Below, piece by piece: positions 3,066 through 18,408 of a stretch of DNA of 32,000 nucleotides. Position numbers and translations under genes: made by a program. A model generated the notes under the pieces. That model was not told the origin of the DNA and did not search any database. It saw only the letters and a list, made by a program, of their open reading frames with translations. Source of the stretch: Edaphobacter aggregans (GTDB lineage: Bacteria; Acidobacteriota; Terriglobia; Terriglobales; Acidobacteriaceae); the NCBI RefSeq assembly GCF_003945235.1, contig NZ_RSDW01000001.1:2460001-2492000 (forward strand), read 5' to 3'. Each line of letters starts with the position of its first letter. Positions within the stretch are counted from its first letter, which is position 1.

Positions 3066-5156
3066 TCAATTCGCCGAAGGCCTCTCGACACGGTCAATCA
3101 CAATCACATCTACCGGAGCTTTGGTCGATACCAGCTTCAACCCCAACTGTTCCTGAATCGCGGTGAAAAGGTCCGGCGGAGCATCAGAGCTTTCCGTCGC
3201 CGAATGCATCTCCTCCGGCGTCCACCTCAACCTCAAGTCAAACCTTCCTGCGAGTTCGGTCTGATCCACCACTGGCCGGTCCAGAGCGCCCTGTTGCATT
3301 GCTCCGGCAACATCCGCCATCGTTGCGTTCGTCGCGCCCATATTTCCCGGCGGTCCGAATCCTAGACCTGGGAGTTGGCTAGGATCGCCCTGGCTTCTGG
3401 TCAGTTTGGGACCAGTCTTTGCGACCGTGAGCGCGTACACGCTCAGTTCTCGCTTTTCATAATGAAATTTGAGCTGAAACCGATCCGCCACCAGCTTTCT
3501 GACCATCAATTGCCATTGCTTGATGCTTGGTTCACCCTCGCCATCGGGTACAGCGGAGATATCGTACGTCTCCGAACTAAACCAATCGGGTGCGCCCGCA
3601 ATCTCGCGTCGTTGGAGTCCATAGGCAAACTGGATCAGTTGGCTCAGAGAAATGTGAGTGACCGAAAAGCGGTGCGGATCAAACCAGAATCTCGGTCCAT
3701 GTTCATCAGGACTGCCTGGCTTGATCGTGGCGACTTCAAATGTCGGATTCGCGTCCGCAGCCATGGGAGCCAAGCGCCGTGGAGGCTGGGGAATCGTCCA
3801 CTCAGTCTCTAGCGTGGCGCGTGCAAAATTCAGCGGCAGCGGATTCTGTCCTTGCCTCCACATCCCTGTGATGGAGTTGCCATCGGCGCCCAGAGTGCCT
3901 TCGTATGTGGCAAAGGGAAGATCGATCTTTAGCAAAGAGCCCTTGAACGTGGCGGAAATCGCAGGTATGCCGCCCGTTGGCCCGTCGATGTTGTAGAAGA
4001 TAGCCCTCAACATCGCGTCATCCACCGTCGTGATTTTAACCACAAAGCGTAAGTCTCTATCCGTATGCAGTGTCCCCTGCCAGGTAGCGGCGATGTTCTT
4101 GGCTGGGTTTGCCGGCGCGGATTGAGCCCGAACTTCCGCAACCCTGCCCTCCGTAATATGCAGTAGCCCAAAGACCATCGGAACAGAGATCGCCGCGATC
4201 CCAACGGTGCTTAGCAGTAGTTTTCGGCTCAAATCCAATTTGAGCGTCACCTGATTCGTCATGATGCGAAGAATGCGCTGCTTCAGTTCCGAACCCGTAA
4301 CGCCCGAAATGCATGCGAGGGTAGACTCGGTATAAAACTTGCAGACGTTGAGAATACTCTCTGCATAAACTTCCGCTTCATTGCCGAGCTGCAAAACCGC
4401 TTCATCGCAGGCCCGCTCGCGCTCTTCAATCAGGCGTCGCTCTATCCACCAGACTCCCGGATGAAACCAGAAGATCGCTTCGACCGCCATGTGGATCGCA
4501 GCCGTAAGATTATCGCGACGTAGGACATGGCAATTCTCGTGCGCCAGGATACTGCGAAGCTGGGGCGCCGGAAGTCGATCCACTATTTTTTCTGGCAGCA
4601 GAAGTACCGGACGGATAATGCCGACGATTCCGGGTTCGATCATGCGCGAAGTTGAGAAAACTGGCACATCGATCGGCAGGGGCATTCGAGAAGCCGACCG
4701 CAGCATAGAGCGAATTGCCCACCAGTCGCGCGACCAGCGCAGAAGTAGGAAAAGGAATCCGCACAGCCACAGAACCACAAAAATCTCAGGAAGAAGACTA
4801 CCGTGGTGAGGAGCCGAAGCAACAGTCGCTGGCTCGGCAAAAGCAGTCGTGAACGACTCCGAACTCTGTGGGCTCTGCAAAAAAGGATGTGCCATCTTCA
4901 CCATGGCGCTGGCAAGCTGCGGGCTCCCTATCGGAGACATGCTCGCAGGACGAAGCCAATCACCGATCGCAGCCAGCAGCGAGAATGGCACAAGCAGCTT
5001 GAGAGACGCCGTCATCCAAATCCAGTAGCGCGTCCGCGCCTGGTTACGCTTCAACAGCAGCGTCAGCAGCCACGCCACTAGCATCACCAGCGTCGATTGC
5101 CATAAATGATTGACGATTGCTGCCGACCAGCTTTCTTTCCAGAGCTCGGTGAACAT
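3066..5156 (-). CDS. BlaR1/peptidase M56 family membrane sensor-protease fused to TIGR03435/DUF3738-type C-terminal domain
   Basis: 696 aa. The N-terminal multi-TM region contains an HEXXH zinc motif (AHENCHVLRRDN). The C-terminal part has FEVATIKPGSPDE..., AYGLQRREIAGAPDWF and ...QLGLKLVSTKAPVDVIVIDRVERPSAN, the pattern I know for the soil-bacterial TIGR03435 family. Its ATG lies 2 nt after the blaI-like stop. Confidence 0.85.
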   Translation of the reverse strand: MFTELWKESWSAAIVNHLWQSTLVMLVAWLLTLLLKRNQARTRYWIWMTASLKLLVPFSLLAAIGDWLRPASMSPIGSPQLASAMVKMAHPFLQSPQSSESFTTAFAEPATVASAPHHGSLLPEIFVVLWLCGFLFLLLRWSRDWWAIRSMLRSASRMPLPIDVPVFSTSRMIEPGIVGIIRPVLLLPEKIVDRLPAPQLRSILAHENCHVLRRDNLTAAIHMAVEAIFWFHPGVWWIERRLIEERERACDEAVLQLGNEAEVYAESILNVCKFYTESTLACISGVTGSELKQRILRIMTNQVTLKLDLSRKLLLSTVGIAAISVPMVFGLLHITEGRVAEVRAQSAPANPAKNIAATWQGTLHTDRDLRFVVKITTVDDAMLRAIFYNIDGPTGGIPAISATFKGSLLKIDLPFATYEGTLGADGNSITGMWRQGQNPLPLNFARATLETEWTIPQPPRRLAPMAADANPTFEVATIKPGSPDEHGPRFWFDPHRFSVTHISLSQLIQFAYGLQRREIAGAPDWFSSETYDISAVPDGEGEPSIKQWQLMVRKLVADRFQLKFHYEKRELSVYALTVAKTGPKLTRSQGDPSQLPGLGFGPPGNMGATNATMADVAGAMQQGALDRPVVDQTELAGRFDLRLRWTPEEMHSATESSDAPPDLFTAIQEQLGLKLVSTKAPVDVIVIDRVERPSAN

Positions 5157-6928: not shown

Positions 6929-7510
6929 TCACGCCCGTTTGGAGGTTTTCTTCGCCACCGCCTTCTTCACTGCCTTCTTTACTGAGACCTTCTTCAATGC
7001 CTTTTTAGGAGCCAACTTCTTTGCTGCCTTGGCAGGAGTTGTCCTCTTCTCCCCGGCAACTCTCTTCTTAGCCGGAGCCTTCTTCCCTGCCGCCCCCTTA
7101 CCCGGAGTCTTGGCCACCTCTGCTCCGTTCCCGCTCGATTTCCCTGCCTCATGCGAATTCATCAACCGCTCGATTTGTTCCAGCAAAATCCGCGTATGCA
7201 TGGGCTTCACCAACATCTTGTCGGCGCCCATCTCCTGCCAGTCTTCGTCCGCCAGCGGAAACGCCGTCAGCAGTGCCACCGCGGGATGATACGCCGCCTC
7301 GCGCGCAGTTCGGATCACCTCGGCTCCCGCCTCGTCATTCTCCATTCGCATGTCGGTGATCACCATGTTGTATTCGTTCTTGCGCAGCTTGAACTTGCCG
7401 TCACGCGCGGAAGCGGCCGTATCCACATCAAACCCGCTGATCTCCAGGATTGCCTTCATCGTCAACAGCACAGCCACTTCATCATCCACCAGCAGGATCC
7501 GACGTTTCAT
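6929..7510 (-). CDS. Response regulator receiver domain with Lys/Ala-rich histone-H1-like C-terminal tail
   Basis: The start MKRRILLVDDE is at ATG 7510; the track start at 7630 is upstream. The REC residues are present: DD, ITDMRM, LLTAF, LVKP. The last ~70 aa are AKK/KKA repeats (GKKAPAKKRV...AKKLAPKKALKKVSVKKAVKKAVAKKTSKRA). Confidence 0.85.
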   Translation of the reverse strand: MKRRILLVDDEVAVLLTMKAILEISGFDVDTAASARDGKFKLRKNEYNMVITDMRMENDEAGAEVIRTAREAAYHPAVALLTAFPLADEDWQEMGADKMLVKPMHTRILLEQIERLMNSHEAGKSSGNGAEVAKTPGKGAAGKKAPAKKRVAGEKRTTPAKAAKKLAPKKALKKVSVKKAVKKAVAKKTSKRA

Positions 7511-7659
7511 TGCAGGCCCTCTCTCAGACTTTCTTACAATACACACCTTGCACAGAACACGTCCTTGGATGAAGGCCGACCATCCAACCGTTGTCCCCGG
7601 CCCATCCTGCGTCCCATTCTTCTCATACAACCAACCGTAGGCGGAAAGCAGCTAAGTGG

Positions 7660-7752: not shown

Positions 7753-8382
7753 ATTCCACCAATCGATAAACGTTCCGCAAAGTCTTTCATCCGCACCAAC
7801 GAACGCATCCGCGCACGCGAAATCCGTGTCATCGACGAGAACGGCGAACAACTCGGCGTTATGCCTCCGTTCGAAGCACTCAAAATGGCCCGTGAGCGTT
7901 CCCTTGACCTCGTAGAGATCTCTCCCAACGCCGTCCCGCCAGTCTGCAAAATCCAGGACTACGGCAAATTCCTTTACGAGAAGGACAAGAGCGACCGCGC
8001 CGCCCGCAAGAAGCAGAAGGTCATCGTAATCAAAGAGGTCAAGTTCTCCGTCACCGTAGACGAGCACGACTACCAGACCAAAAAAAATCAGGCTGTTCGC
8101 TTCCTCGGCGATGGCGACAAGGTCAAGGCTTCGCTTCGCTTCAAGGGCCGTCAGATGGCCCACCGCGATCTCGGCTACAAGATTATCAATCGCCTCATCC
8201 TCGATATCGGGGACGCTGGCACGGTTGAGTTTATGCCCCGCATGGAGGGAACAACACTCCACGCCATCCTTGCCCCGTCCAAAAAAGCTGAGGCCGCCCC
8301 GAAAAAGCCCGCTACTGCCTCGGCACCTTCACCTTCGAAGCCCGTCGAGCCCGCCGCACAACCCGCCCCGACCACCGCTTAA
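7753..8382 (+). CDS. infC: Translation initiation factor IF-3, ATT start codon
   Basis: ...IRTNERIRAREIRVIDENGEQLGVM...LDLVEISPNAVPPVCKIQDYGKFLYEK...LRFKGRQMAHRDLG... aligns along its length with E. coli IF3. There is no in-frame ATG near the conserved N-terminus. GGAGGG (7743-7748) sits 4-5 nt before in-frame ATT 7753, giving an N-terminal length like E. coli IF3. The protein ends in a Pro/Ala/Lys-rich tail. Confidence 0.85.
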   Translation: MPPIDKRSAKSFIRTNERIRAREIRVIDENGEQLGVMPPFEALKMARERSLDLVEISPNAVPPVCKIQDYGKFLYEKDKSDRAARKKQKVIVIKEVKFSVTVDEHDYQTKKNQAVRFLGDGDKVKASLRFKGRQMAHRDLGYKIINRLILDIGDAGTVEFMPRMEGTTLHAILAPSKKAEAAPKKPATASAPSPSKPVEPAAQPAPTTA

Positions 8383-8408
8383 AAAGTCAATTCCTCACCC
8401 TCGAACGT

Positions 8409-8434
8409 AGGCTAAGTCCTCAGGGGCTTAGCCT
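8409..8434 (+). terminator. Hairpin after infC (weak terminator candidate)
   Basis: AGGCTAAGTCC-TCA-GGGGCTTAGCCT. No clear T-tract follows. Confidence 0.35.
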
Positions 8435-8711
8435 TGCGTCAATCTGGCTAAGCTTGAGGAAGCACAGTCCTTCGTGTTCGAATCCCCCAAAACTTACCCT
8501 CAGTAATGGCGCACACCTTTGCGCATCGGCCACAATTGTTGCCCTATTTGATCAAATTCAATCTATGAAATTGATGAAGCCGCATTTCCCCATCCAGATA
8601 TTGCCTAACAAGATACCCAAAAACCACATCTTCTAGGCCAGCAAGACCACCGCAATGCCGGGTTCAACATCCAAAGATAATGTTACTTCAGTAATTTGAG
8701 ATGTTTTATAT

Positions 8712-8756
8712 TCCTTTATATACCTCATTACATTGGACTTATTGTCCTTTACATCC
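8712..8756 (+). promoter_or_regulatory. Direct repeats TCCTTTATATACC / TCCTTTACATCC spaced 33 nt apart in the AT-rich upstream region
   Basis: The repeats are at 8712-8724 and 8745-8756. The second ends 20 nt upstream of the predicted -35. By my count, 8691-8760 contains 20 G+C in 70 nt. Confidence 0.4.
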
Positions 8757-8775
8757 TATGGTTACTTTAGCTCGT

Positions 8776-8804
8776 TTGTCCAGAAAAATCTGGAGATGTA
8801 AATA
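8776..8804 (+). promoter_or_regulatory. Candidate sigma70 promoter of the small-peptide genes
   Basis: TTGTCC (8776-8781), a 17-nt spacer, then TAAATA (8799-8804). An AGGGG SD (8812-8816) and ATG 8826 follow. Confidence 0.45.
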
Positions 8805-8825
8805 CGACTTTAGGGGTACTCCATC

Positions 8826-8996
8826 ATGAAGCTTATCGTCCGCGCAGTCGTCGTCGCCCTCGTCCTCACCGGTGCAGCAGCCTCCACCCAGATCGCCTCG
8901 GCCTCTGCTAGCTCCAAAGTCACCATCGCTAAGAACAGTGCTATGCCCATCCCCATGTGCGCTCCCGATGATGCCAATGCCTGCGGCTTGCGCTAA
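8826..8996 (+). CDS. Small secreted peptide A (56 aa, signal peptide plus C-terminal C-x7-C motif), uncharacterised
   Basis: MKLIVRAVVVALVLTGAAASTQIASASASSKVTIAKNSAMPIPMCAPDDANACGLR*. An SD precedes the ATG. The N-terminus has K/R, a hydrophobic core and an ASA-type cleavage site. It has a paralog 237 nt downstream, and the differences are mostly synonymous in the C-terminal motif. Confidence 0.7.
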   Translation: MKLIVRAVVVALVLTGAAASTQIASASASSKVTIAKNSAMPIPMCAPDDANACGLR

Positions 8997-9062
8997 CGTC
9001 CCCTAAACATTCGCAATCTTTCTAAGTATCCAAAATATCAGCTAGATGCAAAGGCCAATCCC

Positions 9063-9233
9063 GTGAAAACTATCGTACGTACTTTCGTCGCAGCCATTGT
9101 CCTCTTGGGTGCAGCAGCCTCCACCCAGATTGCCTCCGCCTCCAACCAAACCAAGGTTACCGTCGCCAAGACCAGTGCCATGCCGATTCCCATGTGCGCT
9201 CCTGATGATCCCAATGCCTGTGGTTTGCGCTAA
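9063..9233 (+). CDS. Small secreted peptide B (56 aa), paralog of peptide A
   Basis: GTG start after AAAGG: (M)KTIVRTFVAAIVLLGAAASTQIASASNQTKVTVAKTSAMPIPMCAPDDPNACGLR*. It has the same length as peptide A and 44/56 identical residues. I count 15 synonymous codon differences between the two genes. Confidence 0.7.
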   Translation: MKTIVRTFVAAIVLLGAAASTQIASASNQTKVTVAKTSAMPIPMCAPDDPNACGLR

Positions 9234-9256
9234 ACCAAGTTGGTAAGATTATCAAA

Positions 9257-9281
9257 GTAACCGAGATATTTATTGTAACCG
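9257..9281 (+). promoter_or_regulatory. Direct repeat GTAACCG-N11-GTAACCG upstream of the 7-TM gene
   Basis: GTAACCG occurs at 9257-9263 and 9275-9281, in the 93-nt gap between peptide B and the membrane-protein gene. Confidence 0.3.
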
Positions 9282-9326
9282 CCTCAAAGTTAGGCTACGC
9301 TGATGGTAGTCATTGGGAGGCGGTCA

Positions 9327-10232
9327 ATGTCTCAAGGCATATTTGTCGCGGCGTTATCTTACCTTGAACTAATTTTTTGCGCAGTAGTTCTTCTGGCTTT
9401 GGTGCGCTCTGGAGCAGCTCGCAAGTTCATCTTTTTGACTTCGCTGCTCGGTATAAAGCTCATCTCCGGATTAGCAGGCTCGATTATTCTCGGTTTGTCA
9501 TCGCGAGGGATTGAGCGGCATCTCGCCTATCAGATGTATTTTTACGTCTACTGGATTTCATATGCCCTGGAGGCGATCTTTTCCCTCCTTGTCATCTACA
9601 GCATCTTTAAGCTAGCGATGGCTCCGCTGAAGGGTTTGCAAACTCTTGGAATGCTGGTCTTCCGGTGGGTTGCAGCGATTTCGGTTGCAGTTGCCATCGG
9701 CGTTGCGCTCACGCCGCACCTCTCCGGTGTGAAGTTCATGGTCTCCATGGTCACGCAGCTTCAACAGACATCGAGCATTCTCACGCTTTGTCTATTGCTG
9801 TTCGTCTGTTTTGCTATTCGTCCAATGGGTCTTTCCTACCGCAGCCGAATTTTTGGCGTGAGCTTTGGCCTTGGCTTTCTGGCAGCGGTCAGCCTGGTGG
9901 ATTCCGCATGGCTCTCACATAATTCCAATTTGTACTCCACCATCAACATCATTAATGGTGCAGCGATCTGCCTGACCCTTCTCATCTGGTCAGCTTACTT
10001 CACGTTCCCGGAGCCAAAGCGCCGCTTCATCGTTCTACCCACCACTTCGCCATTCCTGCGGTGGAACCAGATCTCGATGGCTTTGGGCGATGACCCCGGC
10101 TATGTAGCCATCGGCGGCATTCCACCTGAGCTGTTCGCACCGGCTGAACTTGAGGTCATGCGGCGTGCGTCGGCAAAGATGCCTGGCAATTTGGAAGGCC
10201 ACGCTGGGGTGCATCACTCCATCTCCGCGTAG
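9327..10232 (+). CDS. Orphan polytopic membrane protein (about 7 TM helices plus ~70-aa soluble tail), no recognisable domain
   Basis: I prefer ATG 9327 (MSQGIFVAALSYLE...), preceded by GGGAGG at 9315-9320, over ATG 9303. About seven hydrophobic stretches of ~20 aa are visible by eye. The C-terminal tail is PEPKRRFIVLPTTSPFLRWNQ...GHAGVHHSISA. Confidence 0.75.
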   Translation: MSQGIFVAALSYLELIFCAVVLLALVRSGAARKFIFLTSLLGIKLISGLAGSIILGLSSRGIERHLAYQMYFYVYWISYALEAIFSLLVIYSIFKLAMAPLKGLQTLGMLVFRWVAAISVAVAIGVALTPHLSGVKFMVSMVTQLQQTSSILTLCLLLFVCFAIRPMGLSYRSRIFGVSFGLGFLAAVSLVDSAWLSHNSNLYSTINIINGAAICLTLLIWSAYFTFPEPKRRFIVLPTTSPFLRWNQISMALGDDPGYVAIGGIPPELFAPAELEVMRRASAKMPGNLEGHAGVHHSISA

Positions 10233-10268
10233 CACCATCGCACACCATACTGATTCATCAGGGCAACA

Positions 10269-10300
10269 AAAGAGGCCATCCCAAGCGGGATGGCCTCTTT
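10269..10300. terminator. Bidirectional intrinsic terminator between the 7-TM gene and rpsA
   Basis: The perfect stem AAGAGGCCATCCC-AAGC-GGGATGGCCTCTT is followed by TTTATTCTT on the plus strand and TTTGTTG on the minus strand. Confidence 0.85.
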
Positions 10301-10326
10301 ATTCTTATAGCCTTTGAGAGTTGAGC

Positions 10327-12273
10327 CTACTCGCGCTCTGACTCAGATCGCTTCCAATTGATCAGATCACCCAGCGTCGTGCTGCTGCTCGATGAAGAAG
10401 ACGAACTCGAGGAACCCTTGGGAGACTTGTCGCGCTCCTTATAGCTCTCGACCTCTGCACGGCTGGCCTCTTCGCCAACGGCCCGGATGCTGAGACCGAC
10501 CTTCTTCTCATCCTGGTTCATCTTGACGATCTTGAACTCGTGCTCAGAGTCAACGTCCAGCTGCACCGGCTTGTTGTCCGCGCCGACAGCCTCGGACACA
10601 TGGCACAATCCCTCGACTCCTTCAGCGATCTCAACAAAGGCACCGAACTGCGCCGTACGCAGAATCTTGCCCTTGATGACGTCGCCAACGCGATGCTGTG
10701 CGAAGAACGTCTCCCAAACATCAGGCTGCAACTGCTTGACGCCTAGCGACAGGCGGCGATTCTCAGGCTCAACGCCCAGAACGATCGCCTTGACCTTCTC
10801 GCCCTTCTTCAGAACCTCAGAAGGATGCTTGATCCGCTTGGTCCAGCTCAAGTTCGAGACGTGCACCAAACCATCAATCCCGTCTTCGATCTCGATGAAT
10901 GCACCGAAGTCGGTCAGGTTGCGAACACGACCCTCAATGATCGCGCCGGTAGGATACTTATCCTCCAGCTGCTCCCATGGATTCTCCTGCAGCTGCTTCA
11001 TACCCAGCGAGATGCGCCGATCGTTCGGGTTCACGCTCAGAATGATCGTGTCGACCTCATCGCCCGGCTTGACCATCTTCGACGGATGCTTCATCCGCTT
11101 GCTCCATGTCATTTCAGACACGTGCACGAGACCCTCAATGCCCTGCTCCAGCTCGACGAACGCGCCGTAGTCAGTAACCGACAGAACACGGCCACGAACC
11201 TGCGCACCAATCGGGTAGCGCTCCGTCGCATCAAGCCACGGATCAGGCGTCAACTGCTTGAAGCCCAGCGACACGCGCTGTTTGTCCTTGTCGAACTTCA
11301 GAACCTTCACCTGAATCTCGTCGCCGACGTTCACCAGATCACGCGGATGCGTCAACCGGCCCCAGCTCATGTCAGTGATGTGCAGCAGGCCATCAAGGCC
11401 GCCCATATCGACGAACGCGCCGTAGTCGGTCAGGTTCTTTACCGTTCCGGTCAGAATGCTGCCCTCTTCCAGAGTCGCGAGCGTAACAGCCTTCTTCGCG
11501 TTCTGGTCTTCTTCGAGCAGTTCCTTCCGGCTGATCACAACGTTGCCACGCTTCTTGTTCAGCTTGATGACGCGGACTTCGATCTCCGTGCCGATATAGC
11601 CGTCCAGATTGCGCACTGGACGAACCTCAACCTGCGATCCGGGCAAAAACGCCTTGATGCCGATATCGACGGTCAGGCCACCCTTGACGCGGCTCAGAAC
11701 CATGCCCTTGACGGGCGTCTTCTCGTTAGCGGCCTGCTCCAGCTTGTCCCAGACCTTATGGCGAAGCGCCTTCTCGTAGCTGACCAGGTAGCCACCTTCG
11801 GGCTCCTCGCGTTCAACCACAACCTCAACAGAATCTCCGGCCTGGAACTTGGACACACCATTGATGTCCAGAACCTGGTCCAGCGGAATCAGACCTTCCG
11901 ACTTGAGCCCGATATCGACAACGACATGTTTGTCCGTAATCTTGACCACGGTACCAGTAACGATGACCTCTTCTGCGGTCAGGCTCTGTGCGGCGGCAGC
12001 GTCAGCAGCCTGCTCGCGGTCAAAATTCGCCAATGCGGCCGCAAAATCGGCTGCATCATAGTCCGGCTCGTCGTGGGAGGCGTCGATCGCGGTGGCTACA
12101 TGGCCATGCTCTTCGCTCGCACTTGACGTGTCGTGGGCGGTCTCATGCTGTTGGGTTGAGGTGGATTCAGAAGACAGGGCGGCGTTCTCCGCTGTCGCTT
12201 CGGGCGCTAGGACTTCCAGTTCGGTGGTCAGGGGTTTGCTCTCGGCTTGTTCAGGATTATGGTTATCTACCAT
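10327..12273 (-). CDS. rpsA: 30S ribosomal protein S1
   Basis: Six S1/OB repeats are present (e.g. GTVVKITDKHVVVDIG, GMVLSRVKGGLTVDIG, GTVKNLTDYGAFVDMGGLDGLLHITDMSW, GRVLSVTDYGAFVELEQGIEGLVHVSEM...). I prefer ATG 12273 over the TTG at 12297. Confidence 0.9.
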   Translation of the reverse strand: MVDNHNPEQAESKPLTTELEVLAPEATAENAALSSESTSTQQHETAHDTSSASEEHGHVATAIDASHDEPDYDAADFAAALANFDREQAADAAAAQSLTAEEVIVTGTVVKITDKHVVVDIGLKSEGLIPLDQVLDINGVSKFQAGDSVEVVVEREEPEGGYLVSYEKALRHKVWDKLEQAANEKTPVKGMVLSRVKGGLTVDIGIKAFLPGSQVEVRPVRNLDGYIGTEIEVRVIKLNKKRGNVVISRKELLEEDQNAKKAVTLATLEEGSILTGTVKNLTDYGAFVDMGGLDGLLHITDMSWGRLTHPRDLVNVGDEIQVKVLKFDKDKQRVSLGFKQLTPDPWLDATERYPIGAQVRGRVLSVTDYGAFVELEQGIEGLVHVSEMTWSKRMKHPSKMVKPGDEVDTIILSVNPNDRRISLGMKQLQENPWEQLEDKYPTGAIIEGRVRNLTDFGAFIEIEDGIDGLVHVSNLSWTKRIKHPSEVLKKGEKVKAIVLGVEPENRRLSLGVKQLQPDVWETFFAQHRVGDVIKGKILRTAQFGAFVEIAEGVEGLCHVSEAVGADNKPVQLDVDSEHEFKIVKMNQDEKKVGLSIRAVGEEASRAEVESYKERDKSPKGSSSSSSSSSSSTTLGDLINWKRSESERE

Positions 12274-12612
12274 GTGATTGCGGACTCCGGGATCCAAGGG
12301 TACGTTCCATCTCGGGCGTCGCTTCAGGAACCATCAGCGCTCTGTTTAGGAGGCTGGCTGGTCTTCCATCCCGTAAAAACTCGTCAGGCAGGAATGAACG
12401 ACATCTAGCAGAGGAGCGGCTGCACTTGGGTCCCCCACGCAGTGGCTCACCTAAAATCATAGAACTTCGAACCCAATACGTCAACAGAACTGCCCTCGCG
12501 CGACAGCATTTTCACCGCCACGTCATCCATTCCTGTCAAATCGCCCTCCCGCTCACCTCGCACATACCAAACCGCCAGCCAGAACGGATCCACCCGCTAT
12601 ACTCGCCCATAT

Positions 12613-18321: not shown

Positions 18322-18408
18322 GCCGTAGTGGCGGAATTGGCAGACGCGCATGGTTCAGGTCCATGTACTCGCAAGGGTGTGGGGGTTCGAGTCCCCCCTT
18401 CGGCACCA
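18322..18408 (+). tRNA. tRNA-Leu (anticodon CAG), class II with long variable arm, CCA encoded
   Basis: The acceptor is GCCGTAG/CTTCGGC, with one U5-U68 mismatch. The D arm is GCG-GAATTGGCAGA-CGC. The anticodon arm is CATGG-TTCAGGT-CCATG. The T arm is GGGGG-TTCGAGT-CCCCC, followed by ACCA. Confidence 0.9.

Follow-up and report, generated by a model that had tools for sequence, protein, structure and literature searches.

Two very similar open reading frames (ORFs) of 56 codons lie in tandem in the chromosome of Edaphobacter aggregans, and the locus raises a simple question: are these genes, and if so, what are such small proteins for? They occupy positions 8826-9233 of the stretch analysed here (the window: 32,000 nucleotides of contig NZ_RSDW01000001.1, positions 2,460,001 to 2,492,000 of the forward strand); all coordinates below are positions in the window. 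A preliminary description had taken them for paralogous genes of secreted peptides with a cysteine loop. We find that they belong to a family of predicted exported peptides whose genes are obligately linked to the gene of a predicted seven-transmembrane (7TM) protein, hereafter the partner, and that the arms of a hairpin sequestering the partner's Shine-Dalgarno sequence (SD) co-vary. The partner gene, the variable number of peptide genes, and the RNA and promoter architecture all go beyond what had been described before.

A family of small peptides with a conserved cysteine loop

Both ORFs were found at the coordinates given in the preliminary description. Gene A (8826-8996, + strand; MKLIVRAVVVALVLTGAAASTQIASASASSKVTIAKNSAMPIPMCAPDDANACGLR) starts with ATG and gene B (9063-9233, + strand; MKTIVRTFVAAIVLLGAAASTQIASASNQTKVTVAKTSAMPIPMCAPDDPNACGLR) with GTG; each encodes 56 amino acids (aa), and they match the hidden Markov model (HMM) of the family with E = 4.6e-26 and E = 5.1e-25, respectively. 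In sequence searches, copy A was 100% identical to EDE15_2079, a "hypothetical protein" of E. aggregans, while copy B was identical to P0059, a protein called in JGI data only and unannotated in the NCBI record. The SD-like elements noticed earlier are AGGGG at 8812-8816, 9 nt before the ATG, and AAAGG at 9050-9054 (+ strand), 8 nt before the GTG and within the 66-nt spacer between the two copies.

Reading the GTG start as Met, our recount reproduced the 44/56 identical residues and 15 synonymous codon differences, next to 13 nonsynonymous codon differences and 133/171 identical nucleotides. Over the last 19 codons there are indeed six synonymous changes and a single amino-acid change (A50P). 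The Nei-Gojobori ratio of nonsynonymous to synonymous substitution rates (dN/dS) between the copies is 0.216 overall, with dS about 0.72-0.78; by region it is 0.32 in the signal, 0.40 in the linker and 0.029 in the C-terminal 19 codons. The flanks of the two copies cannot be aligned, and hence the similarity is confined to the ORFs. This pattern is far beyond chance. Compared with the copies found in other genomes, those of the window are an unusually diverged pair.

Relatives are abundant and conserve the reading frame. A word-indexed search returned 126 homologs of 54-62 aa, and an exhaustive HMM search of 1.84 billion cluster representatives returned 184 representatives, nearly all of 52-68 aa, with 56 at E <= 1e-10. 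Across more than 300 homologs, down to about 35% identity, the frame and both cysteines are retained. The C-x7-C spacing that had been read as a cysteine loop turns out to be family-wide, being present in 92 of 110 diverse members. The family N-terminus resembles MKxIVRAFVvaLaLTGaAAS and is followed by a variable, Ser/Thr/Ala/Lys-rich linker (12-20 residues), then by the core, P-x-P-x-C-x-P-x-D-P-x-x-C-G-(I/L/M), and a short variable tail that extends from 0 to 21 residues past the second Cys. More fully, the core reads (A)(M/L)P(I/V/T)P(M/V/T)C(A/P)P(D/N)DP(N)(A/G)CG(I/M/L), which gives a loop consensus of C-(A/P)-P-(D/N)-D-P-N-(A/G)-C. Many members have a proline pair in the loop (PPD, PPN); both window copies, like most from Edaphobacter, have AP in its place. 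Around the loop, the Edaphobacter clade shows an enrichment in Met, Cys and Asp; the only residues conserved into distant members are P, C, D, P, C and G, and Met is not among them.

Pooled over 79 loci, dN/dS is about 0.09 in the core (with dS saturated) against 0.38 in codons 2-20, and the peptide core is under strong purifying selection. With dN/dS of 0.03-0.09 on the C-terminal core and a frame kept in homologs, the earlier conclusion that selection acts on the protein, rather than on a repeated non-coding element, stands. The remark that the motif belongs to no named peptide family also agrees with our searches: against Pfam and NCBIfam nothing scored above threshold, and the best matches were limited to the signal region. 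An Rfam scan of 8380-9340 found no family, even at E <= 1.

The earlier description of the products as secreted holds only as predicted Sec export. Of 230 members put through a rule-based check (229 scorable), 228 have a (-3,-1) signal-peptidase site and 188 an A-x-A site; the n-region carries a net charge of +1.9, and the median length of the hydrophobic run is 13 residues. Sec-type signal features were thus seen in 228/229 scorable members. As the hydrophobic run is too short for a stable membrane anchor and A-x-A sites are present, cleavage rather than anchoring is predicted, and because Acidobacteria have two membranes, the default destination is the periplasm. The predicted mature peptides have about 28-31 aa (2.9-3.1 kDa for the window copies). 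The AlphaFold2 (AF2) model of the peptide consists of a helix over residues 2-29, then low-confidence coil or disorder.

Some distant members carry further cysteines, either as an extra pair in the C-terminal tail (e.g. CHLCGLGGCIN, CGMCQANGSCSQ) or as a third Cys beside the loop (PCCAPDD); among them are P0276, P0281, P0295, P0310, P0339 and P0343, as well as P0058, P0069 and P0074. Their sequences suggest sub-families with two disulfides. A few entries are frameshifted or read through (P0248, P0256, P0259, P0267, P0278, P0282 and P0298, and locus L067 at 3591-3857), with a normal N-terminus and an unrelated tail. They are rare relative to intact copies and are probably assembly errors in the repeat array, not pseudogenes. 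Three ideas about features of the peptide were rejected: a CaaX-like C-terminus, given that the tail past the second Cys ranges over 0-21 residues; an Excalibur or EF-hand calcium loop, the DxDxDG motif being absent from the peptides; and a lipoprotein, as the peptides have no lipobox Cys.

Obligate linkage to the gene of a predicted 7TM protein

In the window, the order of genes is a response regulator (-), infC (+), the two peptide genes (+), a gene for a partner of about 300 aa (+) and rpsA (-). Other Edaphobacter-type genomes have the same order, with one or two peptide genes. Since shared gene order within one genus proves little, we examined distant homologs with 36-48% identity. Their neighbourhoods are unrelated (gyrB with L27/L21; Der GTPase with rpsA; RNase R with YdjM), yet in every case the peptide gene is followed, after about 80 nt, by a same-strand gene for a protein of 289-310 aa without a Pfam match.

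We then anchored a scan on the partner. One genome per GTDB species was scanned, giving 206 homologous stretches, and the best 80 were taken for the peptide search, in which the family HMM was run on all six-frame ORFs within +/-4 kb. In 78/80 loci, one to six tandem peptide genes directly precede the partner gene in the same orientation, and the +/-4 kb searched contain no others. The remaining two loci have less than 200 bp of upstream sequence, so the linkage holds in 78/78 informative loci. The best 80 loci carry Acidobacteriaceae-type labels (Edaphobacter, Tunturiibacter, Granulicella, Terriglobus and the isolates KBS and TAA) with one exception, L039 (CAVZYX010000015.1), which is labelled "uncultured Actinomycetes bacterium" and yet has a typical Acidobacteriaceae module with four peptide copies. 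The taxonomic label of this metagenome-assembled genome is probably wrong. We found no homolog among 72,556 plasmids, and PADLOC matched no defence-system model. Judged by these sequences, the module is core-genome-like, chromosomal and conserved across Acidobacteriaceae.

Clean calls gave one peptide gene in 28 loci, two in 27, three in 17, four in nine, five in three and six in one; close relatives of the window strain have 3-4 copies. Within one genome, the copies are near-identical, including the otherwise variable tail, a sequence pattern that indicates recent duplication or concerted evolution. Runs of N interrupt some tandem arrays (L032 at 3083-3448; L037, E. aggregans DSM 19364, at 3100-3885; L069 at 3524-3878), and many metagenome contigs, all from ordinary assemblies, break inside the array (L093-L100). 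Copy number is consequently under-called in public data.

The predicted seven-helix partner

The partner gene (9327-10232, + strand) encodes a predicted seven-helix inner-membrane protein of 301 aa with a conserved cytoplasmic tail (LPTTSPFLRWNQISMALGDDPGYVAIGG), and homologs 36-76% identical to it follow the peptide genes in every context examined. Public annotations give its length as 309, 301 or 276 aa (start at 9303 or 9327; P0126). We favour the ATG at 9327 (301 aa) because of the SD GGGAGG at 9315-9320 and family conservation. Neither a common Pfam family among 121 aligned homologs nor any relative in NCBIfam or, by profile search, among PDB sequences was found.

From this alignment (34-92% identity), AF2 produced a model with a predicted local distance difference test (pLDDT) of 77 and a predicted template modelling score (pTM) of 0.71. 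Transmembrane helices span residues 2-27, 35-60, 64-97, 102-128, 135-167, 174-196 and 205-226; a small low-confidence C-terminal domain lies beyond the seventh, and the external loops are very short. Arg/Lys clusters in the loops between helices 1-2 and 5-6 and past helix 7 lead, by the positive-inside rule, to an N-out/C-in topology. Invariant motifs are QLQ, C155, RPxG..S.xSR, SAW, PEP and LPxTSPxxxWNxI..LG, and the most conserved segment of all is the predicted cytoplasmic tail. Conserved polar residues (Y68, Q144/Q146/Q147, S193 and W195) fall in the outer half of the bundle. The fifth helix has a polar QLQQ stretch in its outer half and a segment LTLCLLLFVCF, in which C155 is invariant and C161 at least 90% conserved; these features could be relevant to a redox or ligand-binding role.

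Against the PDB, Foldseek matched the model only to seven-helix bundles of the G protein-coupled receptor (GPCR) type, namely GPR61, GABA-B, histamine H1 and LYCHOS. The matches are weak (best E = 0.017, TM-scores 0.33-0.50, identity 8-18%), and we read this model-based likeness as one of generic architecture, without claiming homology to GPCRs. One of the 121 homologs has a marginal 7TMR-DISM_7TM match (E = 0.013), and none has a HisKA or HATPase domain. Pfam, NCBIfam and PDB profile searches gave no protease, transporter or oxidoreductase signature, and the homologs have no invariant His or Asp. Some ideas of what the partner resembles were rejected: an exosortase/PEP-CTERM system, as the peptide has no C-terminal transmembrane segment and the partner neither an EpsH match nor an invariant His; a PilZ-like tail, in which the spacing is wrong and Pfam gives no match; and a DsbB/VKOR/CcdA-like oxidoreductase, since the partner has a single invariant Cys.

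A hairpin with an embedded candidate promoter between peptide and partner

The spacer between the last peptide gene and the partner has a median length of 100 nt and contains two overlapping elements. One is a hairpin (9278-9324, + strand) whose 5' arm, ACCGCCTC at 9278-9285, pairs with GAGGCGGT at 9317-9324; this 3' arm overlaps the partner's SD. RNAfold of 9225-9345 gave -33.6 kcal/mol (z = -2.48), and the SD is paired in 79/85 loci. The arms differ widely by lineage and are nonetheless complementary, with 3-6 canonical pair types in each stem column. Duplexes average -16.5 kcal/mol for cognate arms, -10.5 for non-cognate ones and -8.9 after shuffling; permuting the partners lowers the paired fraction from 0.79 to 0.66 +/- 0.02. 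The pairings were fitted by duplexfold, which biases them towards structure, and the permutation controls address this bias. RNAalifold on a MAFFT alignment of the partner leader found no structure, the 3' arms being out of register there. Rfam has no family for the leader and hairpin region.

The other element is a candidate sigma-70-like promoter for the partner (9273-9301, + strand), with TTGTAA at 9273-9278, 17 nt, and TACGCT at 9296-9301. The 5' arm of the hairpin forms the first part of the 17-nt promoter spacer. A single layout is conserved in 82 distinct loci: an A/T-rich stretch, TTGnnn, 17 nt (77/82), TAnnnT, and 21-35 nt to the ATG. Better hexamers are found where the arm sequences are unrelated, for example TTGAAG-17-TACAAT in L008 and TTGACG-16-TATCCT in L007.

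The 5' arm precedes the start site inferred for the embedded promoter. Most simply, then, this sequence would keep the read-through message silent and leave the partner's own transcript translatable. On messages reading through from the peptide genes, the hairpin would form and partner translation would be blocked, while transcripts from the embedded promoter would lack the 5' arm and be translated. Partner synthesis would then not depend on that of the peptide and would be far lower.

Just past the last peptide stop there is also a small hairpin, TTGGTAA-GA-TTATCAA (9240-9255, + strand). At the equivalent place other loci, including L001, L011, L019, L023, L026, L027 and L038, have a palindrome (GCAA-N4-TTGC or TGCA-N6-TGCA) about 40-50 nt 5' of the partner's -35-like hexamer. 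From its sequence and position, this post-stop palindrome might serve to bind a protein or be an element of an mRNA 3' end. The idea that TGCA-N6-TGCA is a sigma-54 promoter was rejected, the GG/GC spacing being one off in most loci.

What the peptide and its partner may do

The strict linkage calls for an explanation that covers both proteins. We tentatively prefer the reading in which an abundant periplasmic peptide acts on the 7TM partner, as its cognate ligand or as a modulator, a prediction that draws on the structural model and that we hold with somewhat less confidence than doubt. Sec would export the precursors, from which signal peptidase I would release peptides of about 28-31 aa, in which the two cysteines would close a nine-residue, proline-stiffened disulfide loop in the oxidising periplasm; tandem amplification would serve a high peptide dosage. 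The peptide would bind in a periplasm-facing cavity lined by Y68, Q144/Q146/Q147, S193 and W195, and the 7TM protein would relay occupancy to the cytoplasm via its invariant C-terminal tail. Such a pair would amount to an envelope-state or self-sensing circuit, with a logic like that of CpxP/CpxA or MgrB/PhoQ.

A functional link between peptide and partner is supported by their 78/78 adjacency, which persists amid unrelated flanks, infC and rpsA included. The seven helices, the GPCR-type Foldseek matches, the conserved tail and the lack of an enzyme or transporter signature speak for a receptor-like partner; one to six near-identical copies and a co-varying hairpin with a promoter-like element inside speak for high dosage and uncoupled expression. 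Several observations weigh on the other side. The GPCR-like similarity is that of a generic seven-helix bundle only (TM-score <= 0.5), the partner has no recognisable output domain, no conserved cytoplasmic signalling partner is encoded nearby, and the response regulator adjacent in the window is missing from other contexts. The core is near-invariant across genera, whereas known peptide signals usually diversify between strains. A modulator of the MgrB type needs no six copies, and amplification better fits a consumed or structural product. Both promoter assignments (the embedded one and that of the peptide genes, given below) rely on weak hexamers, the -10 TACGCT of the window matching at 3/6 positions and falling below the threshold of a generic scan; the peptide promoter is also ambiguous, a minus-strand match being closer to consensus in that scan. 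The broader proposal, by analogy, of family-wide peptide/7TM-receptor signalling, with LPTTSPxxxWNxIS..LGDxPG as a novel tail motif and receptor synthesis insulated by the promoter-bearing hairpin, strikes us as doubtful. If true, it would give prokaryotes a peptide/7TM-receptor pair whose architecture parallels that of eukaryotic peptide GPCRs.

Other explanations account for parts of the same evidence. The peptide may be a precursor or cargo and the 7TM protein its maturation, export or anchoring factor, which might introduce changes in the Cys loop or tail, pass the peptide on or tether it to some envelope component, while the copies supply a consumed or structural product. We think this unlikely. 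In its favour, besides the strict adjacency of both genes, tandem precursors are typical of ribosomal peptide natural-product loci and of structural subunits made in abundance; beyond C-G, the tail differs from genome to genome and is homogenised within each, as a removable or recognition segment would be; and in the partner the membrane-embedded Cys155 is invariant, Cys161 is nearly so, and the QLQQ stretch is polar. Yet Pfam, NCBIfam and PDB profile searches gave the partner no catalytic motif and no enzyme or transporter family, Foldseek returned receptors rather than transporters or enzymes, there is no invariant His or Asp, and a peptide with its own Sec signal needs no dedicated inner-membrane exporter. 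The lower partner synthesis from the peptide mRNA that the hairpin would bring about is compatible with a catalytic amount of partner, but is no proof of it. A toxin-immunity pair, in which a polytopic protein protects the producer from a Sec-dependent, bacteriocin-like peptide, is less probable again. A small, amplified, Cys-stabilised exported peptide beside a multi-pass protein does resemble bacteriocin/immunity pairs, such as the class II Sec-dependent bacteriocins with CPBP/Abi-type immunity proteins, and NCBIfam gave a sub-threshold bacteriocin-like match (E = 0.086, 13 bits vs a cutoff of 40), which is restricted to the signal region. However, the 206 sites in species-representative genomes are stable chromosomal positions with none on plasmids, and the core is near-invariant under purifying selection, while bacteriocins are patchy and diversifying. 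Sec reaches only the periplasm, and the contexts examined contain no linked outer-membrane secretion gene; neither peptide nor partner has an Abi/CPBP match in Pfam, and the hairpin would cut immunity expression exactly while toxin mRNA is made.

The peptide might also be an effector in its own right, for example a redox or metal buffer that works through its Cys pair and its Met and Asp residues, or a protectant of these acidophiles against acid or envelope stress, with the 7TM protein merely co-regulated or accessory. The high dosage from one to six copies, the disordered, low-complexity linker, the restriction of the family to the acid-soil lineage Acidobacteriaceae and the enrichment of Met, Cys and Asp at the Edaphobacter loop would fit, but the Met is not conserved in distant members, C-x7-C is not known as a metal-binding or thioredoxin-type spacing, and 78/78 adjacency across rearranged contexts is hard to explain without a direct functional link; we consider such a role improbable. 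Still less credence goes to a regulatory upstream ORF or arrest peptide like SecM, MifM or VemP, in which stalling on the Pro-rich C-terminus would open the hairpin and allow partner translation. About 30-40 nascent residues are buried in the ribosome exit tunnel, and a ribosome at the C-terminal motif would thus keep the signal out of reach of Sec. The hairpin's 5' arm starts at least 33-45 nt past the stop, beyond the footprint of a terminating ribosome, a leader acting in cis would have no use for one to six tandem copies, PP has become AP in most Edaphobacter copies, both of the window's included, and the downstream gene is no Sec/YidC component by Pfam, NCBIfam or PDB sequence. Three published hallmarks are superficially present, namely an N-terminal topogenic signal, a conserved Pro-rich C-terminus and an SD stem-loop (PMC7897499), but published searches asked for 80-200 aa, at least 40 of them in a hydrophilic part (PMC7897499), and the peptide, at 56 aa with about 30 past the signal, is too short. 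Finally, the ORFs might be no genes at all but a duplicated non-coding DNA or RNA element open in one frame by chance, as their shortness and copy B's GTG start and missing NCBI annotation might suggest. To this we give practically no chance: the differences between the copies are concentrated at third codon positions (11/6/21 over the first, second and third), dN/dS is 0.03-0.22, the similarity stops at the ORF borders, SDs are present, the frame is kept in more than 300 homologs, and Rfam gave no match at E <= 1.

Comparison with known systems

Pairs of a small exported peptide and a cognate membrane protein are a kind already known. MgrB carries two functionally important periplasmic cysteines. 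It shares with our peptide a very small size, an N-terminal hydrophobic segment, a Cys-containing C-terminus (here predicted to be periplasmic) and a polytopic membrane partner, which here is the proposed target. MgrB is a membrane protein of 47 aa that inhibits PhoQ (PMC8404706). The peptide described here, by contrast, has a cleavable-type signal and no anchor, occurs in tandem and is always beside its partner, a 7TM protein that lacks a kinase domain; the peptide does not resemble MgrB in sequence, and Pfam and NCBIfam gave no MgrB match. The Agr and Com pheromone cassettes of Gram-positive bacteria (AgrD/AgrC, ComC/ComD) likewise link a small exported peptide to a multi-pass membrane sensor, and peptide dosage and regulated expression are further points in common. 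Their peptides have double-glycine or amphipathic leaders, are processed and exported by AgrB or ComAB and are hypervariable between strains when mature, and their receptors are histidine kinases with an adjacent response regulator. Here the signal is of the Sec type, there is no kinase and no conserved linked regulator, the core is near-invariant, and no AgrB/ComAB-type processing or export gene is adjacent in any context examined.

Class II bacteriocins, too, are small disulfide-stabilised peptides (the disulfide here being predicted) with a Sec signal, encoded beside a multi-pass protein; the present family differs in being core-genome-like, plasmid-free and under purifying selection, in its two-membrane hosts and in lacking an Abi/CPBP signature. 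A seven-helix bundle with N-out/C-in orientation, here predicted from the AF2 model and the inferred topology, recalls GPCRs and 7TMR-DISM proteins, but this partner has neither an extracellular sensor domain nor a recognised cytoplasmic output domain. Unlike arrays of ribosomally synthesised and post-translationally modified peptides, the locus has no modifying enzyme nearby (radical SAM, LanM, YcaO); its neighbours are housekeeping genes that vary with context, and the only constant one is the 7TM protein, which has no enzyme signature. The reactive-site loop of Bowman-Birk and SFTI inhibitors, C-T-(K/R/F/L)-S-x-P-P-x-C, is a nine-residue disulfide loop containing Pro. The loop of our family shares the C-x7-C spacing and one Pro position with it, but does not fit the motif, and Pfam gave no Bowman-Birk match. 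Arrest peptides (SecM, MifM, VemP, ApcA/ApdA/ApdP) also combine a small upstream ORF, an N-terminal signal, a Pro-containing C-terminus and an SD stem-loop (PMC7897499). The published criteria for them are 80-200 aa, a hydrophilic part of at least 40 aa between signal and arrest sequence, and a sec or yidC gene immediately downstream (PMC7897499), whereas the precursors here have 52-68 aa, a downstream gene other than Sec/YidC, a distant hairpin and tandem copies.

We found no description of the peptide or the partner family in the literature, and to our knowledge both families, the tandem array of Sec-type peptides with a 7TM protein and the promoter-bearing hairpin are new. In acidic soils and peat, Acidobacteriaceae rank among the bacteria that are most abundant and whose genetics is least understood, and here they strictly conserve a two-gene module of which neither protein is annotated or related to anything in the curated libraries searched. 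Should the peptide be a ligand or modulator, bacterial envelope signalling would gain a new type, and the module would offer a genetically tractable way into acidobacterial physiology, with possible roles in acid or envelope stress, aggregation or exopolysaccharide production; should it be a processed product or a toxin instead, the peptides would form a class of their own, with a maturation or immunity protein that is also new. Either way, genes of fewer than 60 codons that annotation pipelines overlook or do not name can be core components. The hairpin with its embedded promoter, as proposed from its sequence, would be a compact design for uncoupling the expression of adjacent genes.

Control region and neighbouring genes

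About 170 nt 5' of the first peptide gene are conserved family-wide. Furthest upstream is a palindrome, GTTACTTCAGTAAT (8682-8695, not assigned to a strand; consensus GTTAC-N4-GTAAC), a candidate regulator-binding site of which a relaxed form occurs in 77/81 distinct loci. It lies 140-149 nt before the first peptide ATG in 68 loci and is also present in the distant L005, L007 and L008. A candidate sigma-70-like promoter for the peptide genes follows (8733-8762, + strand), with TTGGAC at 8733-8738, 18 nt, and TATGGT at 8757-8762, hexamers that are conserved as TTAGAC/TTGGAC and TATTGT/TATGGT. The same conserved blocks contain the minus-strand sigma-70-like candidate mentioned above, TGGACA-18-TAGGAT from 8782 to 8753, with 9/12 matches to consensus. 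From its sequence, a divergent or antisense transcript running towards the palindrome at 8682-8695 could start from it; we saw no conserved ORF on the minus strand.

Two further blocks of the + strand leader are conserved in the family: TGTCCAGAAAAA (= TGTCCAGnGAAA) at 8777-8788, which with a local hairpin TCCAG-AAAAAT-CTGGA (8779-8794) spans 8777-8794, and AAATACGACTTTAGGGG (= AAATACAACTTTAGGGG) at 8800-8816, which includes the SD of gene A. GTCCAG is found within 110 nt 5' of the first ATG in 73/81 loci. Across the family, an SD-like motif precedes 186/190 peptide gene starts. It is the only conserved feature of the inter-copy spacers (median 66 nt), and the copies are therefore probably co-transcribed on one polycistronic transcript. 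The sole terminator-like site in 8300-10400, a GC-rich hairpin with a T-rich tract (10269-10300, + strand), comes after the partner gene.

The genes around the module have some peculiarities of their own. The only Rfam match within the 32-kb window is a tRNA gene at 18322-18405 (+). The response regulator (6929-7630, -), which is divergent from infC, combines a receiver domain with a long Lys/Ala/Pro-rich, histone-H1-like C-terminal tail in place of a standard DNA-binding domain; it stands beside the module in Edaphobacter-type synteny only and is absent from L005, L007 and L008. The rpsA gene for ribosomal protein S1 (10327-12297, -) encodes a run of 11 serines near its end, followed by a short acidic/basic tail.

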